NCBI GenBank assembly: GCA_016699795.1
Contig: CP065011.1
Span: 819,449 to 883,448, forward strand
Direction: 5' to 3'
Length of the DNA stretch: 64,000 bases
Source: Candidatus Moraniibacteriota bacterium
Lineage (GTDB): Bacteria > Patescibacteriota > Minisyncoccia > Moranbacterales > GCA-2747515
This document shows positions 20,714 through 61,300 of this stretch, one piece after another (within the stretch, counting starts at the first letter, position 1; each line of letters starts with the position of its first letter). Made by a program: the position numbers and the translations under genes. The notes under the pieces are model-generated. The model ran no database searches, was not told the origin of the DNA, and worked only from the letters and a program-made list of their open reading frames with translations.

Positions 20714-20728
20714 AAAAAGGATTTTTGT

Positions 20729-22123
20729 ATGAAAGTTTTTAGATTTAAAACATTTTTTTTAAGAAAAGAAAAAAATAAAAAAGGATTTTCTTTAATGGAA
20801 AGTCTTATGGTTATTTTTATTGCAGGGATAATCACCTCTTCATTTTTTGCAGCATTCACTCAGGGGAATAGATTAATTAATGAATCCAAAAAAAAAGTTA
20901 CCGCAAGTTCTCTTGCTAATGAACGGATGGAAATGCTTCGAAATCTTAATTATGATGATATAGGAGTTGTGGGAGGTATACCCCAAGGAGTTTTTCCTGG
21001 AAATGAATTTATTGAAAAAAGTGGCACAGAATATCGAATTTTTACTGATATTCGTTACGTTGATGATATCTACGATGGAAAGCAAGGGGGGGATCCTGAG
21101 GATCTTGTAAATACTGATTACAAAATAGCAACAGTATCTGTGTTGTGGGGTGCGGAAGCTGAGAATCAAAAGGTACAATTTAGTTCCTTTTTTGTTCCCC
21201 CAGGTTTGGAATCTGATAGTGGGACGGGGACACTTTCTATTAATATAATTGATTCTTCAGGAGCTGGTGTTCCTTCGGCAAATGTCACGATACAAAATAT
21301 TCCAGAAAACATTTCATTTTCTACAAGTACGGATGCGGTGGGAAATGTTTTTTTGCCAGGATCTCCTCAATCGCAACAATTGTATAAAATAGCGGTAGAA
21401 AAAAATGCATTCGAATCAGTTTCTACATACCCACCGTATCCAACTACAGAATTTACTCCCGTTGATGAACATGCTTCTGTTTTTGAAGGTGGTGTTTCTA
21501 ATAAAGTTATTCTTATTGACAAACTTTCTGACATTCATTTTATAGCTAAGACAGCGAGCGGTGAAATTGTTCCTGATGTTGAATTTTCTCTTACTGGAGG
21601 AAGGGTTATAGGAAGTCGAGCTGGGACAGAAGAAAAAGTTTTTGGATATGAAGAAGATATTTCTCTCGGAATTGATGGAGAAACGGATGTATTAAATTTG
21701 AGCCCTGGTCAATATGCTGTTGAGATTTCTGAAGATATGTTGCCTAGATATCATTTTCTTTCTGTATCCACGAGTGTTTTTGGTGAGGAAAATGTTTTTT
21801 CTTTGAATTCAGATACTCATGAAACAATAGAGATTTTATTTCTTGATACACAAGCATCTTCTCTTCTTGTTTCCGTTCAAAATGAACAGGATAACCTTGG
21901 TATTTCTGGAGCAAATGTTCGAATAGAAAGTTCAGACGGAATATTTTCTAAAGAAAAACTTTCTGATCAATATGGTAATGCATTTTTTTCTTTAGAGGAC
22001 GGCATAGTTTTGGGAGAAACGTATACAATTGAGGTATCTTTGGAAGAATATGTATCTATGAATAAAGATATTGTAATACAAGAAAATATGTTACTAGAAA
22101 AATTCCTTCTTCAACGAGAATAA
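20729..22123 (+). CDS. large prepilin-type protein (type IV pilin-like N-terminus)
   Basis: A basic leader followed by G-FSLMESLMVIFIAG, matching the class III signal / N-methylation motif G(F)xL(I/M)E; 464 aa. Confidence 0.5.
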   Translation: MKVFRFKTFFLRKEKNKKGFSLMESLMVIFIAGIITSSFFAAFTQGNRLINESKKKVTASSLANERMEMLRNLNYDDIGVVGGIPQGVFPGNEFIEKSGTEYRIFTDIRYVDDIYDGKQGGDPEDLVNTDYKIATVSVLWGAEAENQKVQFSSFFVPPGLESDSGTGTLSINIIDSSGAGVPSANVTIQNIPENISFSTSTDAVGNVFLPGSPQSQQLYKIAVEKNAFESVSTYPPYPTTEFTPVDEHASVFEGGVSNKVILIDKLSDIHFIAKTASGEIVPDVEFSLTGGRVIGSRAGTEEKVFGYEEDISLGIDGETDVLNLSPGQYAVEISEDMLPRYHFLSVSTSVFGEENVFSLNSDTHETIEILFLDTQASSLLVSVQNEQDNLGISGANVRIESSDGIFSKEKLSDQYGNAFFSLEDGIVLGETYTIEVSLEEYVSMNKDIVIQENMLLEKFLLQRE

Positions 22124-22153
22124 TAGTGTTAGATAGAAAATAAAAAATGGTAT

Positions 22154-22762
22154 ATGAAAAAAACGAAAAAAGGAATGACATTAATAGAAGTAATCGTGGC
22201 TATAGGAGTTTTTTCTATAGGGATGGGCCTTGCTGTTCTTCTTTTTGTTCAATCATGGAATATGTATAAAATTTCTTTCTCAACGGGGAGTATGCAATTC
22301 GTGGCTTCTAATGGAGTTCAAAGAATAATAGATTCTATTCGTAACGCACAACGATCAGAAAATGGTTCTTATCCAATTGTGAGCGTGGATGAAAATGAAA
22401 TTATTCTTTATTCTAATGTAGATGATGATGAGGAAATAGAAAAAATACGCTTTTTTTATTCTGGCTCAGGTATTGTTCGAGAGGTGCGTAACTCTGTTTT
22501 TGGTACGCCACCTCAATATCCTGCTGGCTATGAAATTTCGGAAGAAATTATTCCTTATGTAATAAATACTGCAGATACACCTTTATTTTCTTATTATAAT
22601 AATGAAAATGAAAAACTTACTGAGCCAATTTCTCTTATTGATGTGAAGATGGTAAAAGTAGATCTTTATGTAGATGAAAATATTAACAGAGATCCTGAGA
22701 GCATAAATATTGAATCATTTGCTTCTATTCGTAATCTTTCCCAATATGAAATTTCGAATTGA
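22154..22762 (+). CDS. type IV pilin / pseudopilin
   Basis: MKKTKKG-MTLIEVIVAIGV is a canonical prepilin N-terminus; 202 aa. Confidence 0.6.
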   Translation: MKKTKKGMTLIEVIVAIGVFSIGMGLAVLLFVQSWNMYKISFSTGSMQFVASNGVQRIIDSIRNAQRSENGSYPIVSVDENEIILYSNVDDDEEIEKIRFFYSGSGIVREVRNSVFGTPPQYPAGYEISEEIIPYVINTADTPLFSYYNNENEKLTEPISLIDVKMVKVDLYVDENINRDPESINIESFASIRNLSQYEISN

Positions 22763-24128
22763 AATAAAAAAAAATCGTGGGGCAGTTCTTGCATATACAT
22801 TAGTTATTATTTCTATAACAATGATATTATTGGTTGCTATTATGCAATTTACTGTTTCGCGCATTGAATATGCAAAATATAGAGAAATACATGAACAATC
22901 TTTACAAATAGCAGAGTCGGGAATTTATTTCTATAGGTGGTATTTAGCGCATGAAGTCGAGGGAAAAACAACACAACAAATTAAAGATTTTTGGGAAAAT
23001 GGAAATCCTTTGGGCGTTGAAACTCCTTATGAACGAGATTTAAGTGATATTGATGGAACTGTTCGAGGAAGGTATCGAATTACAGTAACACCTCCAGAAG
23101 CTTACTCGACAATTGTTTTAGTAGAAACAGAAGGGTGGACGTTTCGGAATCCTGATATAAAAAGAAAAATACAAGTTCGTTTTCGAAGACCTTCTTGGAG
23201 TGATTTGGCTGTTTTGGGAAATGCGTATATGCGTTTTGGAAATGGAACTACGGTAATGGGACCTCTTCATGTGAATGGAGGTGTCCATTTTGATGGAGTT
23301 GCTTATAATGTCGTGAGTAGCTCTGTAGAACAATACTACGACAATGATAGTGATGTAAAAGGCTGGCATGACGGTGTTTGGACCTCTTGGGCTAATGAAT
23401 ACAATACAAGCATGGGGGAGTCCGTTTTTTCTGGAGGAAATGAATATCCTGTTGCTGAAAAAAGTTTCGCTAATGTTTTTACAGATCTTTCTATTATAAA
23501 AAGTACAGCACAAAACACGGGAACGTATTTTGGTAATAATGGACAAGGGCGTCATATCATTTTGAATAATAATAAGACTTTTAGTGTTCGAACAGTGGCT
23601 ACTTACAATACATCAACAAACGCAATAGCGACGTACTCAGGTAATTGGTCAACTTTAGCACTTCCTGATGATGGTGTTATTTTTGTAGAAGATAATATTT
23701 GGTTGGAGGGAAAAATAAATGGGAACCGATTAACAATTGCCGCGGCAGATTTAGTGGGGAGTGTAAAACCTAGTATCTTTATAGGAAAAGATATACTCTA
23801 TACATCCTATGACGGACGTGATATATTGGGAATAATAGCTCAAAATAATATAGAAATAGTTTTTGGAAGTAAGGATGTTCTTCGTTTAGATGGAGCTCTT
23901 CTAGCTCAGAATGGACGAGTCGGACGTTCTTATTATCCAGGAGATCAAAAAAGTACGATAACAGTTTTTGGCTCATTAGCATCGAATACAAGATATGGAT
24001 TTGGATATACTGATGGTACTGGATATGCTATCAGAAATTTATTTTATGATAATAATCTCTTGTATTATCCCCCTCCTTATTTTCCTACGGGAAATGCTTA
24101 TTCTATAGATCTCTGGAAAGAAATATAA
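22746..24128 (+). CDS. PilX-like minor pilin / pilus-associated protein
   Basis: The N-terminus KKNRGAVLAYTLVIISITMILLVAIMQF resembles the PilX N-terminal domain. The start is taken at an internal Met; the call follows from operon context. Confidence 0.35.
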   Translation: MKFRIEIKKNRGAVLAYTLVIISITMILLVAIMQFTVSRIEYAKYREIHEQSLQIAESGIYFYRWYLAHEVEGKTTQQIKDFWENGNPLGVETPYERDLSDIDGTVRGRYRITVTPPEAYSTIVLVETEGWTFRNPDIKRKIQVRFRRPSWSDLAVLGNAYMRFGNGTTVMGPLHVNGGVHFDGVAYNVVSSSVEQYYDNDSDVKGWHDGVWTSWANEYNTSMGESVFSGGNEYPVAEKSFANVFTDLSIIKSTAQNTGTYFGNNGQGRHIILNNNKTFSVRTVATYNTSTNAIATYSGNWSTLALPDDGVIFVEDNIWLEGKINGNRLTIAAADLVGSVKPSIFIGKDILYTSYDGRDILGIIAQNNIEIVFGSKDVLRLDGALLAQNGRVGRSYYPGDQKSTITVFGSLASNTRYGFGYTDGTGYAIRNLFYDNNLLYYPPPYFPTGNAYSIDLWKEI

Positions 24129-24135
24129 AAATATT

Positions 24136-25254
24136 ATGTTAGAAAGAATTTCAAACACCTTAGGATCAAATATTTTTCGACCAGTTCAATCTTTTATGGG
24201 ACTGGATTTAAGTGATCTTAGTGTGAAATATATTCAACTTGAGAGAAAGGGAAAAAATCATTCCGTTCGATCTTTTGCATCTGTTCCTTTAGCGAAGAAC
24301 TCAATTATAAATGGAGAAATAGAGAATCCAGGAGCAGTTATAGATGCTATAAAAGAGTTGATGCAAAGAGGAAAACCAAAGCCACTAAATACACGATCAG
24401 TTATATGTTCTATACCTGAAATAAAAGCTTTTTTACGTATCATTGATATCGTAAAGATGACTGATAAAGAAATGAGAGAGGCAATACCATGGGAGTTAGA
24501 AGAAAACATACCTTTAGCAATTGACCAGGTTTATTATGATTGCCAGACTCTTCCTACAAGAATTCAATCAAAAGATGAAAGTCGTCAGAATGTTTTGATT
24601 GTTGCTGTTGCAAAAAAAGTTATTGATTCATTTATACATGTAGTTGAAGGTGCTGGTTTAGAAGTTATGGGTATGGAGATTGAATCTATTGCTCAATCGA
24701 GATGCCTTCTTTCAGAAGGAGCTTCTAATGAGCATTGTACCTTAATATTAGATATAGGAGATCGTCGAACTAGTTTATTTTTTTCTGTCGGAAATATTAT
24801 AGTATTTACTTCAAGCATACCTCTTTCTTCGCAGATGCTAACTGATGCTTTCGCAAGCCATTTTGGTGTTAGCCAAAAAGAAGCTGAAAAAATAAAAATA
24901 GAATATGGAATAGGTTCTTGTGTGAAAAAAGACCCTCATTTTTTGGCAGCAGAACCCCTTCTTGAGAATCTTTTCTCTCAGATACGACATTCAATGGATT
25001 TTGTTATTCAAAGTCTTGGTTATACGAAAATTATCAATGAAATTTTATTATGTGGTGGAGGTGCTAATACAAAAGGACTCCCTCTTTATCTTTCAAAGAA
25101 AATAGGAATTCCAGTTAGTATGGGAAATCCTTGGATGAATATTACGCTTGGAAAAGATCTTCCCACAGAGCTTCAAAAATCATCTATAGAATATTCAACC
25201 GCCATTGGTCTTGCCCTTCAATCTATGTATTCAAAATATGAGAATAACACTTAA
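24136..25254 (+). CDS. pilM: type IV pilus assembly protein PilM (actin-like ATPase)
   Basis: FtsA/PilM-like fold, 372 aa, with the conserved pilM-pilN-pilO gene order. Confidence 0.75.
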   Translation: MLERISNTLGSNIFRPVQSFMGLDLSDLSVKYIQLERKGKNHSVRSFASVPLAKNSIINGEIENPGAVIDAIKELMQRGKPKPLNTRSVICSIPEIKAFLRIIDIVKMTDKEMREAIPWELEENIPLAIDQVYYDCQTLPTRIQSKDESRQNVLIVAVAKKVIDSFIHVVEGAGLEVMGMEIESIAQSRCLLSEGASNEHCTLILDIGDRRTSLFFSVGNIIVFTSSIPLSSQMLTDAFASHFGVSQKEAEKIKIEYGIGSCVKKDPHFLAAEPLLENLFSQIRHSMDFVIQSLGYTKIINEILLCGGGANTKGLPLYLSKKIGIPVSMGNPWMNITLGKDLPTELQKSSIEYSTAIGLALQSMYSKYENNT

Positions 25255-25783
25255 TATACTTCCAGACGATCATAAAAAAAGAATTCGACAAAAAGAACTT
25301 TTTTCTCGAGTCCTTTCTTATGTAATAGGAATATTTTTTCTCACATTATTTTTTGTGATGATTCTTTTTAGTATTCTTTTTGGTATTCAATCTCGAGAAT
25401 TTCCTCTTTTTACAGATGAAACAATTGATGAAAAAAAACTTCAGAGTCTTATTGAATATGATGAAATCCTTTTTCAAAAAAATAAAGATATGGAACTTAT
25501 AGAAAAACTTCTTCAAAATGAGAAAAAATATACAAAAACACTTTCCCTTTTTAGTGATTTAAATTTGGAAGGCATTACTTTTTCTTCTTTAAATATAGCA
25601 GAAAATACAAAGGTTAATTCGAAGGGCTTTTCAAAAACTCGAGATAAAATTCTTGAATTACAGGAAAAACTTCGCCAGGATGAATGTTTTCTTTCCGTCG
25701 AAGTTCCTATAGAGGATCTTGTGAAGAAAGAAGATGTGGATTTTTCACTTTCTTTTACTTTAAATGATGCGTGTCTTTTGTAG
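25205..25783 (+). CDS. PilN-like bitopic pilus assembly protein
   Basis: Short cytoplasmic N-terminus, a single transmembrane segment, and a periplasmic coiled region; positioned after pilM. Confidence 0.4.
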   Translation: MVLPFNLCIQNMRITLNILPDDHKKRIRQKELFSRVLSYVIGIFFLTLFFVMILFSILFGIQSREFPLFTDETIDEKKLQSLIEYDEILFQKNKDMELIEKLLQNEKKYTKTLSLFSDLNLEGITFSSLNIAENTKVNSKGFSKTRDKILELQEKLRQDECFLSVEVPIEDLVKKEDVDFSLSFTLNDACLL

Positions 25784-26484
25784 AATATATGAGAACACTT
25801 TCAATACAATACCGATTCACCCTTCTTGTGGGTATAAGCCTTGTCTTTTTTTTACCGATTTTTTTTGGAATAAATTTTTTGTTGAAAGAAATAACAAAGA
25901 ATGAATCTTTGGTATATACAAAGATTGTTGACAAAAAATGGCGACAAGATCGTTTGAAATCATTTGAAACTATTCGTATGCAAGTAGAGAAGGTTTCATC
26001 GTGCACTGATGTTTTTTGTGAAAGAATTTTAGATAGAGAAAATCAAATCGCTTATCTTACTTTTCTTGATGAAACAGCTGAAAAAAGAAATGTTTTTATT
26101 AAGGTGGTTGTTGGGAAAGTTGATAGTACGTCTGTCAAAAATAAGAAAGTTAAAGAAGAAGAAAAGAAAGAGATTGATTATGGAAGTACTATAGAGCCTT
26201 TTGATCTTTCGGTTCAGGTTTTGGGATCTTATAAGGATATATTTCTATTTCTTTCTGATATAGAAAATGCGCCTATAGTTATTCACTTTAGTTCACTCTC
26301 CATAGCTTTAGCGGAAGAAGATGCTTTCAAAAAATCAGCTCTTACTGGTAAAGAAAATATTGCTTTTGATGTTGATTCAGAAAAAACGAATGAAAAAATA
26401 GATGCCATAAAATTTGATGTTGTTGCTGATATGAAATTGCGAACATATATTCGAAAATCAGTCGAAACCCCTAAAGAGAAATAG
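25771..26484 (+). CDS. PilO-like pilus assembly protein (hypothetical)
   Basis: A single N-terminal transmembrane segment and operon position only. Confidence 0.3.
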   Translation: MSFVEYMRTLSIQYRFTLLVGISLVFFLPIFFGINFLLKEITKNESLVYTKIVDKKWRQDRLKSFETIRMQVEKVSSCTDVFCERILDRENQIAYLTFLDETAEKRNVFIKVVVGKVDSTSVKNKKVKEEEKKEIDYGSTIEPFDLSVQVLGSYKDIFLFLSDIENAPIVIHFSSLSIALAEEDAFKKSALTGKENIAFDVDSEKTNEKIDAIKFDVVADMKLRTYIRKSVETPKEK

Positions 26485-31248: not shown

Positions 31249-32775
31249 ATGAATATCGAATTATTACAAGCTTTAGTTGTCTGGAGAAAAAAGATAGCCC
31301 AAAGGGATGGTTTTCGCGAGCTTTATCGCATTTTTTCCAATAGCACTTTGGAAGAATTAGCTCGAAAAACTCCTCAAAATGAGTACGAATTGCTTAATAT
31401 AAAAGGCATAGGGCAAAAAAAATGCGAACGTTACAGTAAAGATATCCTGAAATTAGTAAAAGAAACAACATTTGAAAAAGAAGATGTTGTTTCTCAAAAA
31501 GAAAAATATAAAGAGGATTATGCTACAAAAGAAATAGAATGTGTTGGAGATTTTCTTGATCGTCTTAATCAATCGCTTGGGGTCAATCGAGGTCGGGTGA
31601 GGGGAGAAATAACTTCACTTCAATGGCGAGAAACCTGTGTATACTTTTCTCTAAAAGATGCTGAAAAAGATGCCATACTCCCTTGTTTTATGTGGTCATC
31701 AGATCTTTTGCTTTTTGGTTTAAATCTTTCAGAGGGTATGGAAATTATTGCTTTAGGTGTACCAAATATTTATAAACCTGTGGGAAAGATGACGTTTCGG
31801 GTTTCTGATATTGAATTAGTTGGAGAGGGAGCTCTTAAAATGGCCTACGAAGCTTTGAAAAAGAAGTTGGAAATAGAGGGTTTATTGGATGAAAAACGAA
31901 AAAAGAAACTTCCTGAATTTCCAAGGAAGGTGGGAATTATCACATCACTTCAAGGAGCTGTCATTCATGATTTTCTTAATAATGTATCTCATTATGGATT
32001 TCGATTTTTTTGTAGGGATACTCGGGTAGAGGGGCAATCAGCAGTTCGAGATTTACTTCAATCTCTTCGTGTATTCAAAAATCAAGATATTGACATTCTT
32101 GTAGTTATGCGTGGAGGAGGAAGTTTGGAGAGTTTGCAGGCATTTAATAACGAAATACTTATTCGAGAATTAGCAACGATGCCTTTTCCTGTTGTGGCAG
32201 CGATAGGACATCATCAAGACATGCCTTTATTTGCACTTGTTTCTGATAGTGCTGTTTCTACACCAACCGCCGCCGCTCATATTTTAGGAGAATGTTGGAA
32301 TAGTGCTAAAGTTCGCTTATTGGATATGGAACATTCTCTTTTTTCTTTCTTTGAAATCGCCTTAGAAAGACATCATCGAATACTGGATCGTTCTGGAAGT
32401 GATCTAGAAAAATACAGCACTACTATTATAGAAAGAATTACACAGGTTAGAAGAGCTCTTTATAAATGCAGTCTTCTTTTGGAAGCTCGCATCCAAATAT
32501 TAGGAAAAGAAATATGTGAAGGAAATAAACGTTTATTTACTTTATATGAGATGATTTTGATGCGTACCGAAGAAAAAATTGTGCAATATGAAAAATCTCT
32601 CTCTTCTCATGACCCCAAACGAATGCTTGCATTAGGTTACTCACTCATTCGAAAAGATGCTAAAATAATACGAAGTGTCGAAGACGTTTGCAAAAATGAA
32701 GAACTCGAAATAACTATGTATAACGGAAAAATAATTACTCAAGTAAAAAATATTACGTATGAAGGAAAAAAATAA
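31249..32775 (+). CDS. xseA: exodeoxyribonuclease VII large subunit with an N-terminal HRDC-like domain
   Basis: Residues ~95-508 match XseA (OB fold, VGIITSLQGAVIHDF core). The first ~85 aa look like an HRDC/HhH domain (LEELARKTPQNEYELLNIKGIGQKKCERY). Confidence 0.75.
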   Translation: MNIELLQALVVWRKKIAQRDGFRELYRIFSNSTLEELARKTPQNEYELLNIKGIGQKKCERYSKDILKLVKETTFEKEDVVSQKEKYKEDYATKEIECVGDFLDRLNQSLGVNRGRVRGEITSLQWRETCVYFSLKDAEKDAILPCFMWSSDLLLFGLNLSEGMEIIALGVPNIYKPVGKMTFRVSDIELVGEGALKMAYEALKKKLEIEGLLDEKRKKKLPEFPRKVGIITSLQGAVIHDFLNNVSHYGFRFFCRDTRVEGQSAVRDLLQSLRVFKNQDIDILVVMRGGGSLESLQAFNNEILIRELATMPFPVVAAIGHHQDMPLFALVSDSAVSTPTAAAHILGECWNSAKVRLLDMEHSLFSFFEIALERHHRILDRSGSDLEKYSTTIIERITQVRRALYKCSLLLEARIQILGKEICEGNKRLFTLYEMILMRTEEKIVQYEKSLSSHDPKRMLALGYSLIRKDAKIIRSVEDVCKNEELEITMYNGKIITQVKNITYEGKK

Positions 32776-38350: not shown

Positions 38351-38977
38351 TTGTTTTTTATGAGTCAATTGGTAAACAATCTTATTCTTAAAGGATATCT
38401 TTTGACTGATAGAGTAGTAGATGCTTTCTCAGAAATTCAACGAGTTGAATTTCTTTCTGATGAGTTTTCTCAATTTTCAGATGCAGAAATTTCTCTTCCC
38501 GCTGGCTTTGGAAGAACTATGATTCAGCCACAAGTAGCTGCCACTATGATTGAACTCCTTGATGTGGGACAGGGACAAAAAGTTCTTGAAATTGCCAGTG
38601 CTTCTGGGTGGATAACTTCAATTCTTGCTTACATAGTAGGAAAAGAAGGAAAAATTATTGGTATTGAAGAATCTTCAGGTTTAGTAGAACTTGCTCGCGA
38701 AAATGTTGATAAATACCAGTTCATAACGAGAAAACAAGTGGAAATACAACAATGCGATATTCAAAAGGGATATCCCAAAGAAGCTCCTTATGATAGAATA
38801 ATGGTCAATATTAGTTTCGATCATATCCCTGATGTTTTTCTTGAACAGCTTCAATGTAATGGTGTTATAGTCATGCCTTTATATAATGGAATTTGGCGTA
38901 TTTCTAAGGATAAAGATGGAAATATTAAGAAAGAATCCTATGCGGGATTTTCTTTTTTATCCGATGAAGGAAGGTGA
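38351..38977 (+). CDS. pcm: protein-L-isoaspartate O-methyltransferase-like SAM methyltransferase
   Basis: SAM motif I VLEIASASGW with PCMT-like flanking blocks; 208 aa. Confidence 0.5.
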   Translation: MFFMSQLVNNLILKGYLLTDRVVDAFSEIQRVEFLSDEFSQFSDAEISLPAGFGRTMIQPQVAATMIELLDVGQGQKVLEIASASGWITSILAYIVGKEGKIIGIEESSGLVELARENVDKYQFITRKQVEIQQCDIQKGYPKEAPYDRIMVNISFDHIPDVFLEQLQCNGVIVMPLYNGIWRISKDKDGNIKKESYAGFSFLSDEGR

Positions 38978-40029
38978 TAGAGAATAAAAATATGAAAATA
39001 GTAAAAATAATTATTTTTCTTCTATTTACGCTTTGTTTTTTTGTATATCTGAGCATATTTCATTTATATAAAAAAGATATTGCTTATCAAGGATCTGAAC
39101 CTCTCCTTATCACTATTCAAGAAGGATCAAATGTTCTTGATATTGCGCGTGAGTTAAAGAAACAACGATTAATAAGCTCCGAATGGGCTTTTATTATAGG
39201 AACATGGAGTGATGATCTGAGAGGTAAATTTTTTGCGGGAGAATTTTCAATTAAACCAGGCCTTTCTAGTATGGACATCGCCTATATTTTGACAGATGAA
39301 AAATTAGGAAGAAAAAAAGATGTTCAAAATCAAATAACTTTTCCTGAAGGTTGGACATCTCGTCAGATGGCAGATAGATTGACCGCAAAAGGTTTTCGAG
39401 GAGAAGAATTCTTCAAACTTACCCAAAACCCTTCGCAAGAAATACTTGAAAAATTTCTTTTCCTTTCCTCCTTGCCACAAGGAAGATCTCTCGAAGGCTT
39501 TCTTTTTCCAGATACTTATATTTTTGCTTCTGATGACAGGGCGCAGGATATTATAGAAATGCTTTTAGAGACATTTGAGAAAAAAGTTTTTCGTGTTCAT
39601 AAAGATGCTTTTTATTCAGACGGAATATTTGATCAAAATGCTTTTTATGAAAAGGTTATTCTTGCAAGTATTTTGGAAGGAGAAGTTCGTGTAGATAGAG
39701 ATAGAAAAATTGTGAGTGGTATTTTTCAAAAACGATTAACTTCCAATATGCGACTTCAGAGTTGTGCTACGGTCGCTTATGCTTTGGGAGAAAGAAAAGT
39801 TCAATATACGGCAGAGGATTTAACAGTGGATTCTCCTTATAATACCTATACTCATGATGGCTTACCACCCGGACCAGTATCTAATCCATCCCTAAATTCT
39901 CTTGAGGCGGCATTTTTTCCAGAAAAATCGGAATATTTATTTTTCTTAAACGATCCTGAAACAGGAGATACGTATTTCGCAAAAAATTTTGAGGAGCATA
40001 AAATAAATAAAGAAAAAACGGGATTGTAA
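38974..40029 (+). CDS. mltG: endolytic murein transglycosylase MltG (YceG family)
   Basis: N-terminal transmembrane segment, the YceG-like domain, and the conserved C-terminal block GLPPGPVSNP...YLFFLNDPETGDTYFAKNFEEH. Confidence 0.8.
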   Translation: MIENKNMKIVKIIIFLLFTLCFFVYLSIFHLYKKDIAYQGSEPLLITIQEGSNVLDIARELKKQRLISSEWAFIIGTWSDDLRGKFFAGEFSIKPGLSSMDIAYILTDEKLGRKKDVQNQITFPEGWTSRQMADRLTAKGFRGEEFFKLTQNPSQEILEKFLFLSSLPQGRSLEGFLFPDTYIFASDDRAQDIIEMLLETFEKKVFRVHKDAFYSDGIFDQNAFYEKVILASILEGEVRVDRDRKIVSGIFQKRLTSNMRLQSCATVAYALGERKVQYTAEDLTVDSPYNTYTHDGLPPGPVSNPSLNSLEAAFFPEKSEYLFFLNDPETGDTYFAKNFEEHKINKEKTGL

Positions 40030-40870
40030 ATGTATTTTTTGATGTACATTTAACACTAATGAGTTTATTTCTTACTGTTCTATTTGTAGTAAATTATTCT
40101 TTTAATCTAAAGTTAAGGAAGAATACAATATTATTAATAAATAAATTATTTTGAAACATATTTTTTTGAAAGTGTAAGTACGAGTCTTTCCAACTGGGAA
40201 GGATTTTTCTTTAGAACTAATTGTTTTTATAATAGTGACGATAACAGATACAAATGAAAAAGTTGAACACTTTTATAGAATATTCGAGGATAGAATTTTA
40301 AAATTTAGATTTATTGCAACTGAACCACTTAATGTTACGCAACAATATAAGTTAAATAAACTTCCGTATTATTAAAAAAGAGACGTCGAGTGTTTGAATA
40401 TAGGAAACAAAAGTTCTCATCTATAAAGATTTCGAAACTTTGTAAATGTAAATTTGACGCTGTAATGTAACATTTGTGGACAAGTTTGATTTTTTGTGGG
40501 ATAAAGGAGATGAAAATATTTTAAAAGAGGAGGAAATTAGTTATGGCAACCTTGTCTTTTTTGGAATTTGCTCAAGAAGAAGAAGTGAGATCTTCGATTC
40601 AAGAAAAAAAAATAAGAATAATTCTTGAACCTTCCTCATCTGAGTACTCGTCGAGCTTAAACGAAGAAATGGTGAGAAAATTTCTGACCATCATGTATGG
40701 TGAGGATAAAAAATTAAATGATTTCATTTGAAATGAAACTCTTTACGCCTTCAATGAAGGCTTTTTTCTTTTTCTTCAAGGGAGGAAAAAATTTTTACTC
40801 CTTGACAATACTTCAATTATATTTTATTTTGTTTCTATACGTATGAAACTGATTAAAGACCTGTAAAACA

Positions 40871-41752
40871 ATGAAATCATCATTATCATCTTTTCACAAA
40901 AAGTCTTCGGAGAGCCAATTTCTTTTTGGTGTGAGAGAAATATTACGAGATTTTCCTGAAAGAACACAAAGCGTTCTTTCAGATCGATATAATTTGAGTG
41001 GAAAATTAAAAAAAGGGAAAACACTTGAAGCTATTGGTTGTGAGTACGGAGTAACCCGAGAACGTGTACGTCAGATTATTCAATATGCAATGAAAGTTTC
41101 GAGAGATAGGGGCATGAAGAGTCTTGATAGCGCTATAGAGACTGTGAGTACTACTCTTTCTGAGCGTGGAGGGATCCTTTCCAAAAAAGGTCTTTTGCAT
41201 AATCTTGATATAAAAGTTCCAGGAGATGATGGTGCGCTTGATTTTATTCTCGATCTTTCTGATAAATTTGTAGTACTTTCTCCCAATCGCTATGTCACTC
41301 ATGCTGTTTCTATGATAGGTTTTGATCATAAAAGATTTCAGAAAGTTATTGAGGATGTTGAATCGTTCTTACAAGATATTAAAAAACCAAGCTCTTTAGA
41401 ATTCCTTCATAAAATTCTTTGCGAACGTTCCGATGAGCAGGCTGATATTCTTCATTTAGAATCTTTCTTGATTTCTAGTGCAACTATTGATAAAAATCCT
41501 CTTGGAGAATGGGGTATGCTGAAATGGGGAGAAATACGACCGAAAAGTGCGGGTCAACGCGCATATTTAGCACTTCGTTTTCATGGAAAACCGATGCATT
41601 TTACGCAAATATCTCAGAAAATTCACGAGCTTGGACTTTCTTCGAGAAAAGTTAATTCTCAAACAGTTCATAATGAACTTATAAAGAGCTCTTTGTTTGT
41701 GTTGTGTGGAAGGGGAATTTACGGTCTTTCTGAATGGAAAAACTTTTCTTGA
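40871..41752 (+). CDS. hypothetical DNA-binding protein with a sigma-70 region-4-like HTH
   Basis: TLEAIGCEYGVTRERVRQIIQYAMKV matches the sigma-70 region 4 helix-turn-helix. No region 2 is present, so this is not a complete sigma factor. Confidence 0.4.
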   Translation: MKSSLSSFHKKSSESQFLFGVREILRDFPERTQSVLSDRYNLSGKLKKGKTLEAIGCEYGVTRERVRQIIQYAMKVSRDRGMKSLDSAIETVSTTLSERGGILSKKGLLHNLDIKVPGDDGALDFILDLSDKFVVLSPNRYVTHAVSMIGFDHKRFQKVIEDVESFLQDIKKPSSLEFLHKILCERSDEQADILHLESFLISSATIDKNPLGEWGMLKWGEIRPKSAGQRAYLALRFHGKPMHFTQISQKIHELGLSSRKVNSQTVHNELIKSSLFVLCGRGIYGLSEWKNFS

Positions 41753-41804
41753 TTTCTTTCGTAAATACGAAGATAATAAAAAATAATATACAAACATTAA
41801 ACCG

Positions 41805-43082
41805 ATGAATCTTACAGCAATTATATCTTCTGGATTTTTTTTCCAACTCGGGGAATTTTTTGATGTTATCTCTGTAATCTGGGTTTTTGTTTTGCCGTTT
41901 GCTTTTTATTATCTCTTCATGCTTCTTTGGATGGATTATGTGAATGATAGATATGCTGGAAAGATGAGTTTTATTCTTCTTGAAATCACGCCTCCTCAAA
42001 ATATCGAAAAAAGTCCTCAGCCAATGGAGGCTTTGTACTCTGGAATGGCCGGTGCTTATAAAACACCAAATGTTTTTGAACAGTATCTGGATGGTTTCTT
42101 TGTAGATTCTTTTTCTTTGGAGTTTGTGGGAAGTGGGGGAAAGGGGGTTCACTTTTATATTCGAACACCTAAACAATTTCAACATCTTGTAGAGGCTCAT
42201 CTCTATGCACAATATCCTGAAGTAGAAATTCTTGAGGTGGAGGATTATATACACGAAGTTCCCCCTGTAATTCCTAATGATGAATGGGATATCTGGGGCT
42301 CTGATTTTGAGCTTACTGAGCCTGATCCGATGCCAATTAAAACGTATAGACATTTTGAAGAAGATGTTACTGGAAAGATGATAGACCCTCTTGCAGGTCT
42401 TATTGAAATAATGGGACAACTTACCCCTGAGCAACATTTATGGCTTCAGTATATTATCACCCCAGTTTCAGAAGGTTGGTCAAAGGAGGGTCGTCAATAT
42501 GTGCAAGAACGAGCTGGACGAGTAACTAAAAAACCTGGATTTTGGGATAAATTCATAAAAGATTTTTTTGATGTGATTAAAGCGATTGTATCGGGTATTT
42601 TTAGTCCGCCACAATTTTCAACAAGTGAAGAAAAAAAAGATGCTCAACCTTTGGAGGATCGATTAACTCCTATGGAAAAACGTATTCTTGAGGCTTTGGA
42701 AGGAAATGTTGGAAAGAATGTTTTCCAGGTAAAAATGAGAATGGTTTATGTGGGAAAGAAAATAGGTTTTGATAAAGCAACGTTCGTTTCTGGTTTGATG
42801 GGAGGAATTAAACAGTTTTCAGATATGAACTATAACGGGCTTCGTCCAGAGGATGCCTCCAAAACATACGCAAATTATATTATGAAAACTTCGAGATTGA
42901 ATTATCGACAGAGAAAAATATTCAATCGATATCGTGATAGAGATCCTTCGGGAAAGAGATTTATTTTTAGTACAGAAGAACTTGCTACTGTTTTTCATCT
43001 TCCTGATATGGCTGTCATTTCACCTTTCTTTCGACGTGTAAGTGCTAAAAGAGGAAGCGCTCCAATAAATCTTCCTTTCTAA
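41805..43082 (+). CDS. membrane-anchored hypothetical protein, probable partner of the downstream ATPase
   Basis: One or two N-terminal transmembrane helices, then a ~380-aa soluble domain with no recognised motif. Separated from the next gene by 30 bp. Confidence 0.35.
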   Translation: MNLTAIISSGFFFQLGEFFDVISVIWVFVLPFAFYYLFMLLWMDYVNDRYAGKMSFILLEITPPQNIEKSPQPMEALYSGMAGAYKTPNVFEQYLDGFFVDSFSLEFVGSGGKGVHFYIRTPKQFQHLVEAHLYAQYPEVEILEVEDYIHEVPPVIPNDEWDIWGSDFELTEPDPMPIKTYRHFEEDVTGKMIDPLAGLIEIMGQLTPEQHLWLQYIITPVSEGWSKEGRQYVQERAGRVTKKPGFWDKFIKDFFDVIKAIVSGIFSPPQFSTSEEKKDAQPLEDRLTPMEKRILEALEGNVGKNVFQVKMRMVYVGKKIGFDKATFVSGLMGGIKQFSDMNYNGLRPEDASKTYANYIMKTSRLNYRQRKIFNRYRDRDPSGKRFIFSTEELATVFHLPDMAVISPFFRRVSAKRGSAPINLPF

Positions 43083-43111
43083 TTTCCTTATTTTGTGGTA
43101 TACTTTTTCCT

Positions 43112-45124
43112 ATGACAAATCTAAATGAAATAACAAAATTTGCCAAAACTAATTTCCGTAATAGGGAGGTAGTGTTTGGAATAAAGACCGATGATAGACG
43201 TCGGCATATGTATATCATTGGAAAGACTGGAATGGGAAAAACGAATCTCTTGGAACATCTTGTAAGTCAAGATATTAAAAATGGACATGGCGTAGCTTAT
43301 GTGGATCCCCATGGAGATACTTCAGAAAAACTTACACACCTTATTCCACCCGAAAGAATTAAAGATGTTATCTATTTTAATCCTGCTGATCAAGATTTCC
43401 CTATAGCCTTCAATGTGATGGAAAGAGTGGATCCAGCGTACCGACATCTTGTTGCATCAGGTTTGGTGGGTGTTTTTAAAAAACTATGGGCAGATTCATG
43501 GGGACCAAGATTGGAATATATTCTGAGAAATGCTCTTCTTGCTCTTTTGGAATACCCAGAAAGTACTCTTTTGGGTGTGATGCGTATTTTGGTTGACAAG
43601 AAATATCAGAAAGAAGTTGCTTCTTATATTACTGATCCTGTAGTGCGAAGTTTTTGGGTAGATGAATTTACAAAGTGGAATGATAGAGTTTTGCAAGAAG
43701 TAATCGCTCCGATTCAAAATAAAGTAGGCCAATTTCTTTCGAGTTCATTAATTCGAAATATCGTTGGTCAAACGGAATCCTCTTTTAATATCCGACAAGC
43801 GATGGATGAGAAGAAAATCCTCATTTTCAATTTGTCGAAAGGAAGAATAGGAGAAGATAATAGCGCACTTTTGGGTGCTATGATGATTACGAAAATTCAG
43901 CTTGCGGCCATGGGTCGTGTAGATATTGCAGAAGAAAGTCGAAATGACTTTTATTTGTATGTAGATGAGTTTCAGAATTTCGCTACAGAATCTTTTGCTA
44001 ATATTCTTTCAGAAGCGAGAAAATATCGATTAAATCTTATCCTTGCTAATCAGTACATAACACAGATTGAAGAAAAGGTTCGTGATTCTATCTTTGGAAA
44101 TGCGGGAACATTGGTATCGTTTCGTGTGGGAGCAGCAGATGCTGAATTTTTAGAGAAGGAATTCGAGCCTGTTTTTTTGCAGAATGATCTTGTGAATCTT
44201 CCTAAATATCATATTTATTTAAAGCTTATGATAGATGGCGTGGCTGGAGATGCTTTTAGCGCAACAACACTTCCTCCTGTGGAAGGACAAGAAGTAGAAG
44301 ATGTTTCGGAGCAAGTTATTTTTGAAACTCGAAAACGATACACATCTTCTCGTGAGCAGGTGGAAGCAGATATTCGAAAACGAAGTGGTATGGACGAATT
44401 GCTTTTCCCCTCAAAAAGAGAAGAACCAAAAGAGAGAAAATTTGAAATGAAAAGTAATCCCCCTCATTTTGCAAAAGCATCTGTTGAGGAAAATGAAGTA
44501 CCTACTCATCCTCTCGTTACACCACCTATTGTCGTACAAAAAGAGCTTTTGCATGAAGAGATAACTCTTCCTCAAAGAGAAGCACAGCCAAATGAGCAAA
44601 ATTTTGAAAAACAAGTGGAGAGGGAGCAAGTTTCTAAAGAAGTTAGCCCAAAAAATATTTTGTCCGAAGAACATAAAACACATCCTCTTCAAGAAGAAAA
44701 AACAGTAAGAATTCTTTATGATTCTGTTTGTGAATCTTGTGGTGTTCCTATTCAAGTTCCTTTCAAACCAGATGTAACAAGACCTACTTTTTGTAGAGAA
44801 CATTTGAAAGAACACCAGAGACAAACAGCACTTGCTCGAGGAGCGACAAAGTCTCACAGTAGACCCCGCATTGTTCAGCAATCTGAGCCTCCAAGAAAAG
44901 AAGAAGAAATTACTTTAGAAAACAAGAACACTTCTTCCAAGGTGTATACTTCAAGTGAACCGGCAATGTCTCTTTCTCAAATGCAATATGTAGCACCAAA
45001 GAAGTTTCGATCATTACAGAAACCAAATTCTAATGATATTCGAACATTGCTTGAGAGCCTTAAGCGAAATGGACCCCAAGAAAATGAAGATACAGATTTT
45101 TCTCAAAAGAAAAATTCTGAATAG
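43112..45124 (+). CDS. TraD/TrwB/VirD4-like (DUF87/HerA-related) P-loop ATPase with a C-terminal zinc ribbon
   Basis: Walker A IIGKTGMGKTNLLEHL, Walker B LYVDEFQNF, an ARKYRLNLILANQ sensor block, and CESCGVPI...CREH Cys pairs. The C-terminal ~250 aa are low-complexity. Confidence 0.5.
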   Translation: MTNLNEITKFAKTNFRNREVVFGIKTDDRRRHMYIIGKTGMGKTNLLEHLVSQDIKNGHGVAYVDPHGDTSEKLTHLIPPERIKDVIYFNPADQDFPIAFNVMERVDPAYRHLVASGLVGVFKKLWADSWGPRLEYILRNALLALLEYPESTLLGVMRILVDKKYQKEVASYITDPVVRSFWVDEFTKWNDRVLQEVIAPIQNKVGQFLSSSLIRNIVGQTESSFNIRQAMDEKKILIFNLSKGRIGEDNSALLGAMMITKIQLAAMGRVDIAEESRNDFYLYVDEFQNFATESFANILSEARKYRLNLILANQYITQIEEKVRDSIFGNAGTLVSFRVGAADAEFLEKEFEPVFLQNDLVNLPKYHIYLKLMIDGVAGDAFSATTLPPVEGQEVEDVSEQVIFETRKRYTSSREQVEADIRKRSGMDELLFPSKREEPKERKFEMKSNPPHFAKASVEENEVPTHPLVTPPIVVQKELLHEEITLPQREAQPNEQNFEKQVEREQVSKEVSPKNILSEEHKTHPLQEEKTVRILYDSVCESCGVPIQVPFKPDVTRPTFCREHLKEHQRQTALARGATKSHSRPRIVQQSEPPRKEEEITLENKNTSSKVYTSSEPAMSLSQMQYVAPKKFRSLQKPNSNDIRTLLESLKRNGPQENEDTDFSQKKNSE

Positions 45125-45197: not shown

Positions 45198-45479
45198 ATG
45201 TATCTAAGAAGTTATGAGAATTTAGAGCAAAACGAGCGAAGAAAATTAATGGCTGAAATTGAAAATGAATTAGTTATAATAGAATCTGATTTGAAACGAA
45301 ATGCGAGAAAAAAAGAGGATCTTCTTTTGGAAAAAAGGCGTTTAAATGATCAGATTTTGGTACTTCAAGCTCGTTTAGAAGATCTTTCAAAAGAGCTTAA
45401 AAATAGTTTGAAAGAAGAATTTTACTTTCAAACTGAAATTGATCGATTAAAGAAAAAGAGAAACGTTGTAGGGAATTAG
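45198..45479 (+). CDS. small coiled-coil hypothetical protein
   Basis: 93 aa, charged heptad-like sequence, no motif. Confidence 0.2.
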   Translation: MYLRSYENLEQNERRKLMAEIENELVIIESDLKRNARKKEDLLLEKRRLNDQILVLQARLEDLSKELKNSLKEEFYFQTEIDRLKKKRNVVGN

Positions 45480-58035: not shown

Positions 58036-58317
58036 ATACAATTTCAAAACGAAAGACAAAATAATAGAACTTGTGAAATTCATTCATTTCATGCTTGTTG
58101 GATATCGTATGAAGGTATATTTGAATATTGTAATGCTTATAAAGTAAGAGAAAGATGGACTTGTGTTTATAAAAAGAAGAAGAAAGAATTGGAATTGATA
58201 GAAATGAATACTATAAGAGTGTAACTGATGCAAGTCATTGGGTTCTTATTAGAGGGAAATAAAGAAGATTTTTTGAAAATTTTTTTGAAAATAAAAACTA
58301 TGGTATACTTGGAGGGT

Positions 58318-61300
58318 ATGAAATTTCTCAAACAAACAGCACAAAAAAGGAAAATACAGTTTTTTGTAGGAATGTTTTTTGTGGTGCTTGTGAATGTTTT
58401 TTCTGTGGGAGAGGCGAAGGCATATACTTTTGATACTAACTGGATATCGCCGATCAGATCGTATCCAACAGCGGTTGGTTTTGGCACTCTTTCTTGGACG
58501 GAAACTCCTGCTGTGGATGCAAGTGCTTTGATGTATATTCGTGCAGGGAATACAGCTATTCCTGATGGTTCATGGACGGATTGGACGGCTATTTCCAATG
58601 GAGGGAATCTTGCTGTCTTGGGGGTCAAAAAATATGTGCAACAAAAAATTAATTTCTTTGGAAATGGCTTAGCTGTTCCTGTTATTTCCGACATTACTTT
58701 ATCTACGTATTCTGGAGAGCTTTTTTCTTCGTCTTATGATACTAAAGCTTCTCTCAATCAAATCCTTTCTTTTCATTGGAATGCATTAGAATCTGGCTGG
58801 GGGAATACGGCGTTTCAGATACAAGTTTCTCGAGACAAAACAACATGGAATTCATGGTGTAGTGGAATGGAAAATCCAAGCGGAAATTGTGATACTTCGG
58901 TGTGGTTTGAAAATGATTCTGGAACGAATGAATCGACGGTTGTGATGGATAATGCACAGTATCGTTATATTCGATATAGACTTTTTTTTACAGGAAATAC
59001 TGAAAATACGGCTTCCATAGGGGATGTTCGTATAGAGTATGATAAAAAAATATACCAAACACATTTTACCAGCCCCGTCAAAGACTTTCTTTCCCCCTCT
59101 CTTTTCCAAACGCTTTCTTGGAATGAAACTCCGGGACTTGAAGCAGCACTCACTATGAATGTCCGATCAGGAAATACTCCAACACCTGACGGAACATGGT
59201 CTTCATGGATTCCCATTTCCAATGGGGGAGATATATCCCAATTTACAGGCAATCGCTATCTTCAGTATGAAGCAACGTTTTCTTCGTATGATGTAGATAC
59301 ATCAGTTATTCTTTCCGATGTAACAGTTGCTTACTCCCAATACCCCGTAGGCTCCTATCTTCTCACCTCTTCCCCCTACAACTCCACCGATACTGCGAAC
59401 CTCCTCTCTAAAATAGAATGGAATGAAACCATTCCTCCTCAAACAAATATACGTTTCCAACTCCGAACCGCACCAGATCTAACAGGATCTCCTGATTGGA
59501 ACAATGGTTCCAAATGGTGTGGACCTACAGATTGCGCCCTCACAACAAATAGCAATGACTTTGCTTCGAGTTTTTACGAAACAACACCACAAGGAGAATC
59601 TACCAATCCCATACATCTAGAAGGAAACAATGATCAATGGTTACAGTATGCTACCTGGCTTTCTAATGAAAACACCGGAGCCACTCCAACACTTTCTCAA
59701 GTAACGCTTACCTATCTGGTAAACGCTTCTCCTATGATTCAAAATGTAACTGCTACTCCCAATACAGATAAAACAGTAGATATCACCTACGAAGTCAAAG
59801 ATCCTGATACAACTACAGGAACCAATACTCCAGGATTTATTACTCCGAGCTTTTCCTATTGGGATGGAGATTCATGGGAAAGCATTGCTTCTAATACTCT
59901 AGCTCCCGAAGATGTACAAAACAAAGCAGTGAATCAAGATTCGTACACAACACACACAGCTACCTGGACTCCTTCACTTTCTCACTCAAATCTCTATCTT
60001 TCTGGATCAGCCAAGATTCGTGTCACTATAGGGGACAATGAAGGAGCAAATAATACAGCAAATGCAGAATCCAATACCTTTACATTGGATACAAAGATTC
60101 CAGAGAACCCTTCTCTTTCTATAGACGCATCCACTCAAGATCTTCTTGATACCAACACCACATCACTCCTTACTCTTTCTGTATCTGAAGACTCTCAACG
60201 ATTCATGAAAGTTTCTCTTTTTCCTGATCTCTCTGATACTGATTGGGAACCCCATACTCTTAACAAAACTATCAAACTCCAAAGTGATCCTGATACCGTC
60301 TACGCACAATTCAAAGATCAATACGGAAATGAAACACAAATCATTGCTACTGAGAGTATAGAGACTCCTTCTCATATCATGACACAAGATACTTCTAATC
60401 TTTATCTTACTCCTCCTGAATATCGAGTCTTTCTTAGTTTCAAACCATCAGAAATCTCTTCTCAAGAATTCTCTCGTTATGAACTCTTCAGAAAAGAAGA
60501 AGGGGGTTCTTATGGTACTGACCCTCATGATATACGAACAGTTCCTCAAGAAAACTTTCTTACTGATTCAGGAGGAGGTGTTGATCCTAATACTCTCTAT
60601 ACGTATAAAGTACGAACCAAAGATACACTCGGAAATATTTCTTTCTTTTCTCAAGAAGTAACTGCCAAAGCAAATGGCATCCAAGATGCAGGAGAGGGTG
60701 GTGGTGGAGTTGATGATAGTTCTCCTTCTATTGCCAACGTAACCGTAGAATCTAAAGACACCACAACCGTAACTATCACATGGGAAACAGATGAACTCTC
60801 TGACTCTCGTGTAGAATATGCAACCACTCCCAACACCTATACCAAACAAACAGGAGTCTCTACCTATGCTGACACCCAAGCACAATCAGGACTTCATAGA
60901 GTCACTCTTACCAACCTCACACCAAACACTCCCTACTTCTTTAGAGTTGCCTCTACTGATCCTCAAGGCAATACCGGAGTCAATGACAATAATGGCAATG
61001 GATATGAAGTCACAACGAATCCTGGACCTTCTATCAGTGGTGTAGCGGTATCAAGTGCTTCTAACACACAAGCAACCATATTCTGGAATACGAATGTCCC
61101 TGCAGACTCTGTACTCCATTACAGTGAAAACAAGAATGGATCTCTTATCGATCCTATCACTCTCTCCGGATCAAGTGTTCTTACAAAAAATCATCAAGTA
61201 ACCTTAGATGCTCTTACTCAAGGAACCACCTACTATTTCTACGTTACCTCCACCGACTCACAAGGAAACATTGCCAATGACAATAATGGAGGAAACTATT

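Follow-up and report, generated by a model that had tools for sequence, protein, structure and literature searches.

A candidate two-piece coupling-protein-type translocase encoded with a putative DNA-binding partner in Patescibacteria

Within a 64,000-nucleotide stretch of DNA from a Candidatus Moraniibacteriota bacterium (GenBank assembly GCA_016699795.1, contig CP065011.1, positions 819,449 to 883,448 of the forward strand; hereafter the window), three co-directional genes encode a 293-residue helix-turn-helix (HTH) protein, a 425-residue protein of the DUF8128 family (PF26449) and a 670-residue ATPase of the type IV coupling protein (T4CP) family. We propose, with roughly even confidence, that this locus is a chromosomal operon for a two-piece, membrane-tethered, nucleoside triphosphate-driven translocase of the T4CP family together with a DNA-binding partner, and that it was derived from conjugation machinery, split into separate chains and repurposed. 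From sequence profiles and structure models, the 670-residue protein is predicted to be a soluble T4CP-type motor whose P-loop domain carries the all-alpha insertion typical of TrwB and VirD4. Judging from its own model, the DUF8128 protein would supply what this motor lacks, namely a membrane anchor and a domain of ~370 residues that resembles only VirB4 among solved structures. The order of the trio is conserved in most of the 80 species-level genomes that we examined, and no relaxase or type IV secretion system (T4SS) gene was detected adjacent to it.

A published survey reported 5,713 VirD4-type homologues in 2,918 of 3,035 Patescibacteria genomes (96%), with 148 of them near virB4, and left open the role of these "orphan" coupling proteins (Quinonero-Coronel et al. 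2025, PMC12102498). Our analysis places the motor described here in a defined three-gene unit, identifies DUF8128 as the missing membrane part and ties the unit to a protein that combines sigma region 4 with a HARE-HTH domain. In the literature that we searched, we found no mention of DUF8128, PF26449 or the HTH-DUF8128-ATPase trio.

A coupling-protein-type motor without a membrane domain

An initial annotation of the window, made from the sequence alone, had assigned the ATPase to the TraD/TrwB/VirD4-like family, and Pfam, a profile search of PDB sequences and the predicted fold all agree with that placement. The Pfam family TrwB_AAD_bind matches residues 26–338 (E = 3.2e-13), accompanied by DUF87 and TraG-D_C, and in NCBIfam the protein matches SXT_TraD (4.4e-14) and the CD1115 VirD4-like model (7.7e-8). 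A profile built from 28 orthologues recovered only TrwB (2e-5), DotL (3e-5) and a weak P-loop-only match from the PDB sequences, with the TrwB alignment spanning Walker A, Walker B and the RK...Q...Q stretch. In the AlphaFold2 (AF2) model (mean predicted local distance difference test score (pLDDT) of 60), the helices at residues 108–232 that form the all-alpha insertion are predicted with confidence (pLDDT 80–90). The top 21 Foldseek matches of this model are all T4CPs (TrwB at 4e-5, Cagbeta, DotL), with HerA at 8.7e-4 and VirB4/TrwK at 0.11. Neither AAA_10 nor CagE_TrbE_VirB matches the protein, and VirB4_CagE and P-loop_TraG cover the Walker A region only; comparison of the ATPase profile with TrsK (T4CP) and TrsE (VirB4) of pSK41 likewise gave weak signals at the level of the P-loop. 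A confident match to FtsK/SpoIIIE or to a helicase family, which the initial annotation had named as one ground for abandoning its reading, was looked for in Pfam, NCBIfam, the PDB sequences and the fold comparisons; none was found, and such an identity was rejected.

Hydropathy analysis reveals no hydrophobic segment in the ATPase, and Walker A begins as early as residue 37, which together lead us to describe the protein as a T4CP-type motor that lacks the T4CP membrane domain. Its C-terminal region consists of a disordered linker followed by a tail with a short helix. The zinc ribbon recognized in the initial annotation is borne out as a treble clef of the form CxxC-x17-CxxH, matching zf_Tbcl_2 at residues 533–563 (1.2e-8) and the CxxC-x17-CxxC model TIGR04272 (1.7e-9). 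With 39 of 57 orthologues carrying it, we consider it a lineage-variable accessory. As for a C-terminal docking motif, the tails display just a loose amphipathic-helix/PGxxhxh pattern (37 of 58). The nearest plasmid relative of the ATPase, encoded on a Sulfitobacter plasmid (43% identical, 395 aa), is surrounded by transposases, and neither a DUF8128 nor an HTH gene is annotated beside it, which makes it uninformative.

A membrane-anchored partner and its fused relatives

The initial annotation had described the 425-residue protein as membrane-anchored and of unknown function. The anchor stands on hydropathy, as a single N-terminal hydrophobic stretch is found in the window protein and in 40 of 47 diverse family members, and "unknown" can now be refined to a DUF8128 protein with a possibly VirB4-like fold. 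The PF26449 assignment comes from precomputed labels carried by the 100% cluster representative of the window protein, by every homologue listed and by the genes of two close relatives of the window, L001 and L002; the Pfam and NCBIfam copies that we searched gave no match, the Pfam copy being one without the PF26449 model. An exhaustive search with DUF8128 returned 1756 cluster representatives at E ≤ 1e-3. The AF2 model (pLDDT 76.5, predicted template modeling score 0.73) displays a long N-terminal helix followed by alpha/beta domains. When this model was compared with the PDB by Foldseek, all 14 matches at E ≤ 1e-3 were to TrwK/VirB4 of R388 (2e-6 to 9e-4), and among viral models the matches included gp156 (8e-18) and the VirB4-like gp155 (3e-7) of Bacillus phage G.

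Sequence comparison identifies the DUF8128 protein and the ATPase as the separated halves of one ancestral polypeptide. In phrog_5156 (824 positions), DUF8128 matches positions 79–358 and the ATPase positions 396–808. Phage G gp156 (825 aa) is itself a DUF8128-ATPase fusion, to residues 10–321 of which HHalign aligns the DUF8128 profile with a probability of 98%. The two window proteins, concatenated and compared with gp156, yield one colinear high-scoring segment pair of 795 columns (E = 1e-58) that spans the junction. The same architecture is present in WP_128472464, an 885-residue protein of 27-kb Bacillus plasmids (HHalign 98%, ATPase 28% identical). Its gene stands at the head of a cluster that continues with Replic_Relax, TcpC, TcpE and a VirB4-like AAA_10 gene, which is the position of the coupling protein in a Tcp-type conjugation system, and gp156 neighbors a VirB6-like TrbL_4 gene and a VirB4-like gene (P-loop_TraG, AAA_10). 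Because fused homologues exist in both Bacillus plasmids and phages, we treat DUF8128 and the ATPase as one machine; the earlier suggestion that the membrane protein is the partner of the ATPase is strongly supported by them.

Further relatives were observed in Firmicutes and their phages. The T4SS-like set of phage G (L083, 87772–93336) comprises gp153 (TrbL_4, VirB6-like), gp155 (VirB4-like) and gp156, and Bacillus phages of the SPO1-like, CP-51-like and PBC5/JL/Slash-like types also encode related ATPases. A Pontibacillus megaplasmid (NZ_CP062975; L084, 343693–341700) encodes a transmembrane-anchored DUF8128 followed by three out-of-frame ATPase fragments, near a pilin-like conjugal protein of the Mbov_0395 family and a sigma-like HTH gene. 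This locus is a decayed split copy in a Firmicute.

The HTH protein and its probable counterpart in Southlakia

In the 293-residue protein, Sigma70_r4 matches residues 26–75 (E = 1.7e-11), as the initial annotation had recognized. This domain is not the only recognizable feature, as was then stated, since a C-terminal HARE-HTH domain at residues 231–289 is also present, scoring 1.2e-4 in the window copy, slightly under the Pfam cut-off. Among the 2327 homologues of the family, nearly all of those listed carry both domains. Region 4 of primary sigma factors is hit by the family profile at E = 3e-19, and the recognition helix TRERVRQ (VTRERVRQI in the window), shared with those factors, does not vary among family members. 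Sigma region 2 is absent, so the protein is not a sigma factor; the remainder besides region 4 consists of HARE-HTH and unassigned sequence, with no hydrophobic stretch by hydropathy. HARE-HTH is the fold of the RNA polymerase delta subunit, and Joint Genome Institute (JGI) annotation names homologues of this protein accordingly. A stand-alone protein of sigma region 4 and HARE-HTH could be an uncharacterized general transcription factor of Patescibacteria.

A probable counterpart exists in Southlakia epibionticum, the one genetically tractable member. SEML1_0294 (349 aa; Sigma70_r4 at 27–72, HARE-HTH at 225–283) is annotated as RpoS and was essential at all time points, and directly downstream lies SEML1_0293 (921 aa; TrwB_AAD_bind at 402–719), which was non-essential (Wang et al. 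2023 supplement). From its N-terminal extension of ~400 residues, its length (~425 + 496 aa), its domain coordinates and the gene order in the published table, SEML1_0293 is likely a fused form of the cassette. The non-essentiality of the VirD4-type homologue was also remarked upon by others, who considered exaptation possible (PMC12102498). A second T4CP-like protein of Southlakia, listed in the published table at SEML1_0141-0142 (1019 aa, "TraM recognition domain", P-loop at 381–800, FtsK-like in ECOD), and the small gene preceding it are both essential; the protein may be the second of about two T4CP homologues per Patescibacteria genome.

Conservation of the cassette

Starting from DUF8128 and with each species represented by a single genome, a scan yielded at least 588 relatives, and the best 80 loci among them were examined. 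Their labeled lineages include Moran-, Buchanan-, Uhr-, Kerfeld-, Terry-, Niyogi-, Portnoy-, Falkow-, Magasanik-, Nealson- and Lipton-bacteria, among others. The HTH gene lies directly upstream of DUF8128 in 61 of the 75 loci with contig room, and the ATPase gene directly downstream in 60 of 72, at median gaps of 73 bp and 22 bp, respectively. The ATPase core has a median identity of 64% (range 54–80%) over 57 genomes, and identity across relatives is ~33% for DUF8128 and ~31% for the HTH protein. In a reciprocal check, all three independently seeded HTH homologues sat just upstream of DUF8128. Variants of the cassette include HTH-DUF8128 followed by a glycosyltransferase or MltG, and DnaJ-DUF8128-RsmI-MetG.

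None of the genes that flank the module in the window is conserved beside the cassette in the examined loci. The initial annotation had held that synteny with core genes in all relatives would speak against its reading; the module itself is indeed conserved, and synteny with core genes is not, as the flanks differ. The tetranucleotide composition of the module, a k-mer comparison having been suggested as a check, is typical of the window (0.145 versus 0.150 ± 0.033). By tblastn, a search of limited sensitivity, we detected no relaxase, integrase, Replic_Relax, TcpC, TcpE, VirB4-like or VirB6-like gene in the window or within 8 kb at ~87 loci, in line with the earlier observation that no relaxase or integrase is present. 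Among 2.9 million viral contigs in IMG/VR, a single fragment of the cassette family was found, and a phage-borne module was rejected on this count. Given the conserved linkage, the host-like composition, the lack of relaxase and T4SS genes and the near-absence from IMG/VR, we regard the cassette as a conserved chromosomal operon and not as an island, and the earlier proposal of a mobile or horizontally acquired module is not supported.

Several cassette-bearing metagenome-assembled genomes (MAGs; L006, L008, L012, L027, L038, L040 and others) are titled "uncultured Gammaproteobacteria", "Bdellovibrionales", "Binatia" or "Saccharibacteria". Their cassettes are clearly of the Patescibacteria type, being up to 50% identical to the Moranbacteria protein, and such third-party annotation titles are unreliable as taxonomy.

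Proposed function and alternatives

In the mechanism that we favor, a hexamer of the ATPase would dock on the membrane via DUF8128, in the way that VirB3 and the N-terminal domain of VirB4 hold VirB4 in place, and would move or remodel nucleic acid, most likely DNA. The HTH protein, together with the zinc ribbon and tail of the ATPase in many lineages, may select or load the substrate, in the manner of TrwA and TraM acting on TrwB and TraD. The module would have descended from the coupling protein of a monoderm conjugative system, and the motor would have been taken over for a job other than plasmid transfer, with or without a Patescibacteria T4SS encoded elsewhere. A monoderm conjugation machinery is also the published origin of the Patescibacteria T4SS (PMC12102498).

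Several observations weigh against this reading. The ATPase model is mediocre overall, with low confidence at residues 1–43 and 305–387, and the zinc ribbon is absent from 18 of the 57 orthologues. Alignments of DUF8128 with TrwK reach TM-scores of just 0.33–0.39 at a root mean square deviation of 8–12 Å. HHalign comparisons of the DUF8128 profile with pSK41 TrsE, the N-terminal domain of the Bacillus VirB4-like protein and gp155 gave probabilities below 1%, and that with pSK41 TrsD gave 0.3% (all single-sequence templates of low power); DUF8128 was accordingly rejected as a TrsD homologue and as sequence-level kin of the VirB4 N terminus. A DUF8128 profile search of the PDB sequences also returned nothing. 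Since these profile comparisons found nothing, the likeness to VirB4 is one of fold only, and it is the domain order of the fused proteins and the lack of a P-loop that suggest a correspondence between DUF8128 and the N-terminal half of VirB4. In some lineages, DUF8128 occurs without an adjacent ATPase or HTH gene, and one strain (L002) has an insertion sequence (IS) integrase in the place of the HTH gene. In the published transposon sequencing (Tn-seq) data, Southlakia requires its HTH gene but not the ATPase gene beside it, which means that the HTH protein must have a role beyond the motor, probably with RNA polymerase. Finally, only family membership, the zinc ribbon and the HTH neighbor point to DNA as the substrate.

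The alternative that survives best, which we consider possible but rather unlikely, is that the module provides the coupling protein of the Patescibacteria T4SS in trans, with the DUF8128-anchored motor docking on the VirB4/VirB6 channel and delivering effectors or DNA to the host bacterium. Membership of the ATPase in the T4CP family and the location of the fused homologues in conjugation or T4SS-like clusters are consistent with such a role, as is the observation that T4CP genes often lie apart from virB4 (PMC12102498). A VirB4-like domain could also pair with VirB4, which dimerises via its N-terminal domains (PMC9259494). However, the T4CP homologues are more widespread than VirB4, which is present in 2,417 of the 3,035 genomes (PMC12102498), the T4SS of Southlakia is essential by published Tn-seq whereas the ATPase beside the HTH gene is not, and no T4SS gene was found within 8 kb of the cassette at the loci searched.

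Less probable still is an explanation in which the HTH gene is adjacent for regulatory or historical reasons: the HTH protein would be a general RNA polymerase-associated factor, and the DUF8128-ATPase pair would act on proteins, envelope components or another non-DNA substrate. The contrasting essentiality of the two Southlakia genes, the primary-sigma recognition helix, the JGI delta subunit label and the frequency of envelope genes among the neighbors (MltG, FtsW, SecDF, L,D-transpeptidase, Mur ligases) would all accord with this explanation. Against it, the gene order is kept in most of the 80 divergent genomes as well as in Southlakia, a depth that usually marks joint function, and the HTH-DUF8128 adjacency persists where the ATPase gene has moved. 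Moreover, DNA binding is a property of those T4CPs in which DNA handling has been studied, and the ATPase tail carries a zinc ribbon.

We give very little credence to an anti-phage defense module built on a HerA/T4CP-like ATPase: the ATPase matches the PADLOC model mad8 (7.8e-17) and weakly HerA and DndH models, the HTH protein weakly matches MzaA, and RhuM and a ResIII helicase lie upstream in L001, but DUF8128 has no PADLOC match, other MADS or Mza components are lacking, most loci have housekeeping neighbors, and a motor that is 54–80% identical in most sampled Patescibacteria genomes is unlike defense genes in its distribution. Part or remnant of an integrated mobile element is similarly implausible and largely refuted, as the homology to plasmid and phage proteins, the flanks that differ between lineages and the upstream breakpoint, with an IS integrase in one strain, are outweighed by the host-like composition, the lack of integrase, relaxase or flanking repeats beyond a chance 16-nt match, the presence of the cassette in most of the 80 genomes with its internal order unchanged and the near-absence from viral contigs.

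Returning to the translocase reading, we can imagine, as an improbable extension, a membrane-tethered pump for DNA or nucleoprotein that is recruited by the essential factor with its primary-sigma –35 helix and HARE-HTH domain, and that would thereby connect either the chromosome or the transcription machinery with the membrane or the host-contact apparatus. Within the same slim possibility, this T4CP lineage could be a surviving intermediate between VirB4 and the canonical VirD4 type, since it keeps a VirB4-like N-terminal domain.

Operon layout, upstream region and neighboring genes

All gene coordinates of the initial annotation held when the open reading frames (ORFs) were rechecked (Table 1). 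Spacers of 52 bp and 29 bp separate the three genes and contain no terminator-like site, and the gene products are 100% identical to IPN70_04025, IPN70_04030 and their neighbor from a Candidatus Moraniibacteriota MAG. A 252-residue ORF on the opposite strand (41679–42437) overlaps genes with thousands of homologues and was for that reason taken as spurious. In L001, the closest relative available, the module proteins are 72–85% identical to those of the window.

Table 1. Features of the operon, its upstream region and nearby genes. Positions refer to the window, residues to the encoded protein.
Feature	Positions	Strand	Residues	Basis or remarks
mltG/YceG	38974–40029			Directly 5' of gap; Pfam YceG, 1.8e-74
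AT-rich non-coding spacer after mltG	40030–40542	+		GC 0.25; terminator-like hairpins at 40027–40052 and 40182–40206
Small ORF (62 aa), probable gene	40543–40731	+		GAGGAGG Shine-Dalgarno site; L001 counterpart
Intrinsic terminator of small ORF	40747–40770	+		GCCTTCAATGAAGGC then T run; kept in L001
Promoter-like site for operon	40802–40830	+		TTGACA-17-TATTTT, 10/12 consensus matches
DNA-binding protein (293 aa)	40871–41752	+		Sigma70_r4 + HARE-HTH
Sigma70_r4	40946–41095		26–75	Pfam
HARE-HTH	41561–41737		231–289	Pfam
DUF8128 (PF26449) protein (425 aa)	41805–43082	+		N-terminal membrane anchor and soluble VirB4-like domain
Membrane anchor	41847–41942		~15–46	Hydropathy
Soluble domain	41958–43040		~52–412	
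Coupling-protein-type ATPase (670 aa)	43112–45124	+		No membrane segment; Pfam/NCBIfam, PDB profile search, Foldseek
Walker A	43220–43243	+	37–44	
All-alpha insertion	43433–43807	+	108–232	
Walker B	43955–43972	+	282–287	
Treble-clef zinc ribbon, CxxC-x17-CxxH	44708–44809	+		zf_Tbcl_2, TIGR04272
Coiled-coil ORF (93 aa)	45198–45479	+		73 bp 3' of ATPase gene

The gap between mltG and the HTH gene (40030–40870) had been described as ~840 bp, AT-rich and noncoding. Its length is confirmed at 841 bp; the noncoding part is smaller, as only ~510 bp are plainly so once the 62-residue ORF is taken as probably real and equipped with its own terminator, and a gap of this size is not unique in the window, where other large gaps include one of ~1.3 kb before gyrB. 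The G+C content of the spacer compares with 0.353 for the whole window and 0.367 for the module. The 62-residue ORF, previously of doubtful status, is probably a real, lineage-specific gene, judging from its Shine-Dalgarno site, its counterpart in L001 (61 aa, 39% identity, E = 1e-12; found only in this closest relative) and its terminator. The stem pairing of this terminator is preserved in L001 by compensatory change (GCCTTCAATGAAGGC in the window versus GCCGTCAATGACGGC). The ORF matched no family in Pfam, NCBIfam, PADLOC or PHROG searches. The –35 hexamer of the promoter-like site and its surroundings are identical in L001. Promoter-like sites are no more numerous in the region than in shuffled sequences, so the assignment of an operon promoter depends on position and conservation.

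Homology between the DNA of the window and that of L001 starts only at ~40661, and upstream of this point L001 has RhuM and the ResIII helicase where the window has mltG. In the second strain, L002, an rve-family integrase and uvrB abut the DUF8128 gene, and the HTH gene is missing. As L001 (1501–4703) and L002 (4659–5741) encode an identical DUF8128 protein preceded by different sequences, the upstream edge of the cassette is a rearrangement hot spot. A noncoding RNA or repeat element in the gap was rejected, since all Rfam scores fall far under their family thresholds (best E = 0.12) and the one repeat is a 16-nt direct repeat in two copies, as expected by chance. The gap is thus made up of a synteny breakpoint, a small gene with its terminator and the operon promoter, with no special regulatory leader.

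Other genes in and around the cassette deserve mention. The 93-residue coiled-coil ORF that follows the ATPase gene is conserved (61% identity) and keeps its place only in two close relatives, L001 and L002, and it could represent a fourth operon gene specific to this lineage. MltG/YceG adjoins the cassette in three arrangements, being upstream in the window and directly after DUF8128 in L081 (9261–10310) and L088 (9458–10489). Additional frequent neighbors are the envelope genes FtsW, FtsI, MurF, SecDF and L,D-transpeptidase. All these associations may be a matter of chance in small genomes. A type IV pilus cluster (17721–26484), with a PilB-like T2SSE protein carrying an MshEN domain, a PilC-like T2SSF protein and further genes, lies 15–23 kb 5' of the module, and no T4SS gene was seen among the window ORFs checked. 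The large subunit of exonuclease VII (31249–32775) bears an N-terminal HRDC domain (residues 4–70, 6.7e-21) in an unusual fusion. A 1643-residue protein (58228–63159) has repeated purple-acid-phosphatase N-terminal domains as well as fibronectin type III domains, and probably represents a giant surface protein.

Comparison with known systems

The window ATPase shares with the T4CPs TrwB of R388, VirD4, TraD, Cagbeta and DotL a P-loop domain with an all-alpha insertion, and its Walker A, Walker B and RK...Q elements align with those of TrwB. It differs from these proteins in that the chain has no N-terminal transmembrane domain, the anchor residing on the separate DUF8128 protein, and in its zinc ribbon and long disordered tail. 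A further difference is an N-terminal domain of ~370 residues, lacking in canonical T4CPs, with which it is paired or ancestrally fused. Furthermore, the operon is chromosomal and has no relaxase or mating-pair genes nearby.

In R388, the N-terminal domain of TrwK (residues 15–400) mediates dimerisation and is wrapped by VirB3, a protein with two transmembrane segments (PMC9259494). DUF8128 recalls this VirB3-VirB4 (TrwM-TrwK) pair, as an anchor is followed by a domain whose model matches only TrwK/VirB4 among solved structures and the fused homologues have the domain order of VirB4. The ATPase half, in contrast, is of the T4CP type, being closer to TrwB than to TrwK in the fold comparison (4e-5 versus 0.11) and lacking AAA_10 and CagE. 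A precedent for a stand-alone protein remotely resembling the VirB4 N terminus in a monoderm T4SS is TrsD/TraD of pGO1/pSK41, a type that is abundant near virB4 in Patescibacteria (PMC12102498). TrsD differs from DUF8128 in its length of 227 residues, in pairing with VirB4 instead of a T4CP and in the null HHalign comparison.

Further parallels are the fused Bacillus proteins, WP_128472464 and phage G gp156, which are colinear with the joined Patescibacteria pair at 25–29% identity. Unlike that pair, they are single chains without an N-terminal membrane segment, and they are encoded beside Replic_Relax, TcpC/TcpE and VirB4-like genes, with no sigma-4/HARE-HTH gene seen adjacent.

The small DNA-binding proteins TrwA (R388), TraM (F) and PcfF (pCF10) offer an analogy, in that a T4CP and such a protein are encoded together and the latter may recruit or stimulate the former. 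These proteins have ribbon-helix-helix or other folds and act at oriT with the relaxase, whereas the partner in the window combines sigma region 4 with HARE-HTH and has no known oriT or relaxase. The window HTH protein differs from them further in that its probable Southlakia counterpart is essential on its own.

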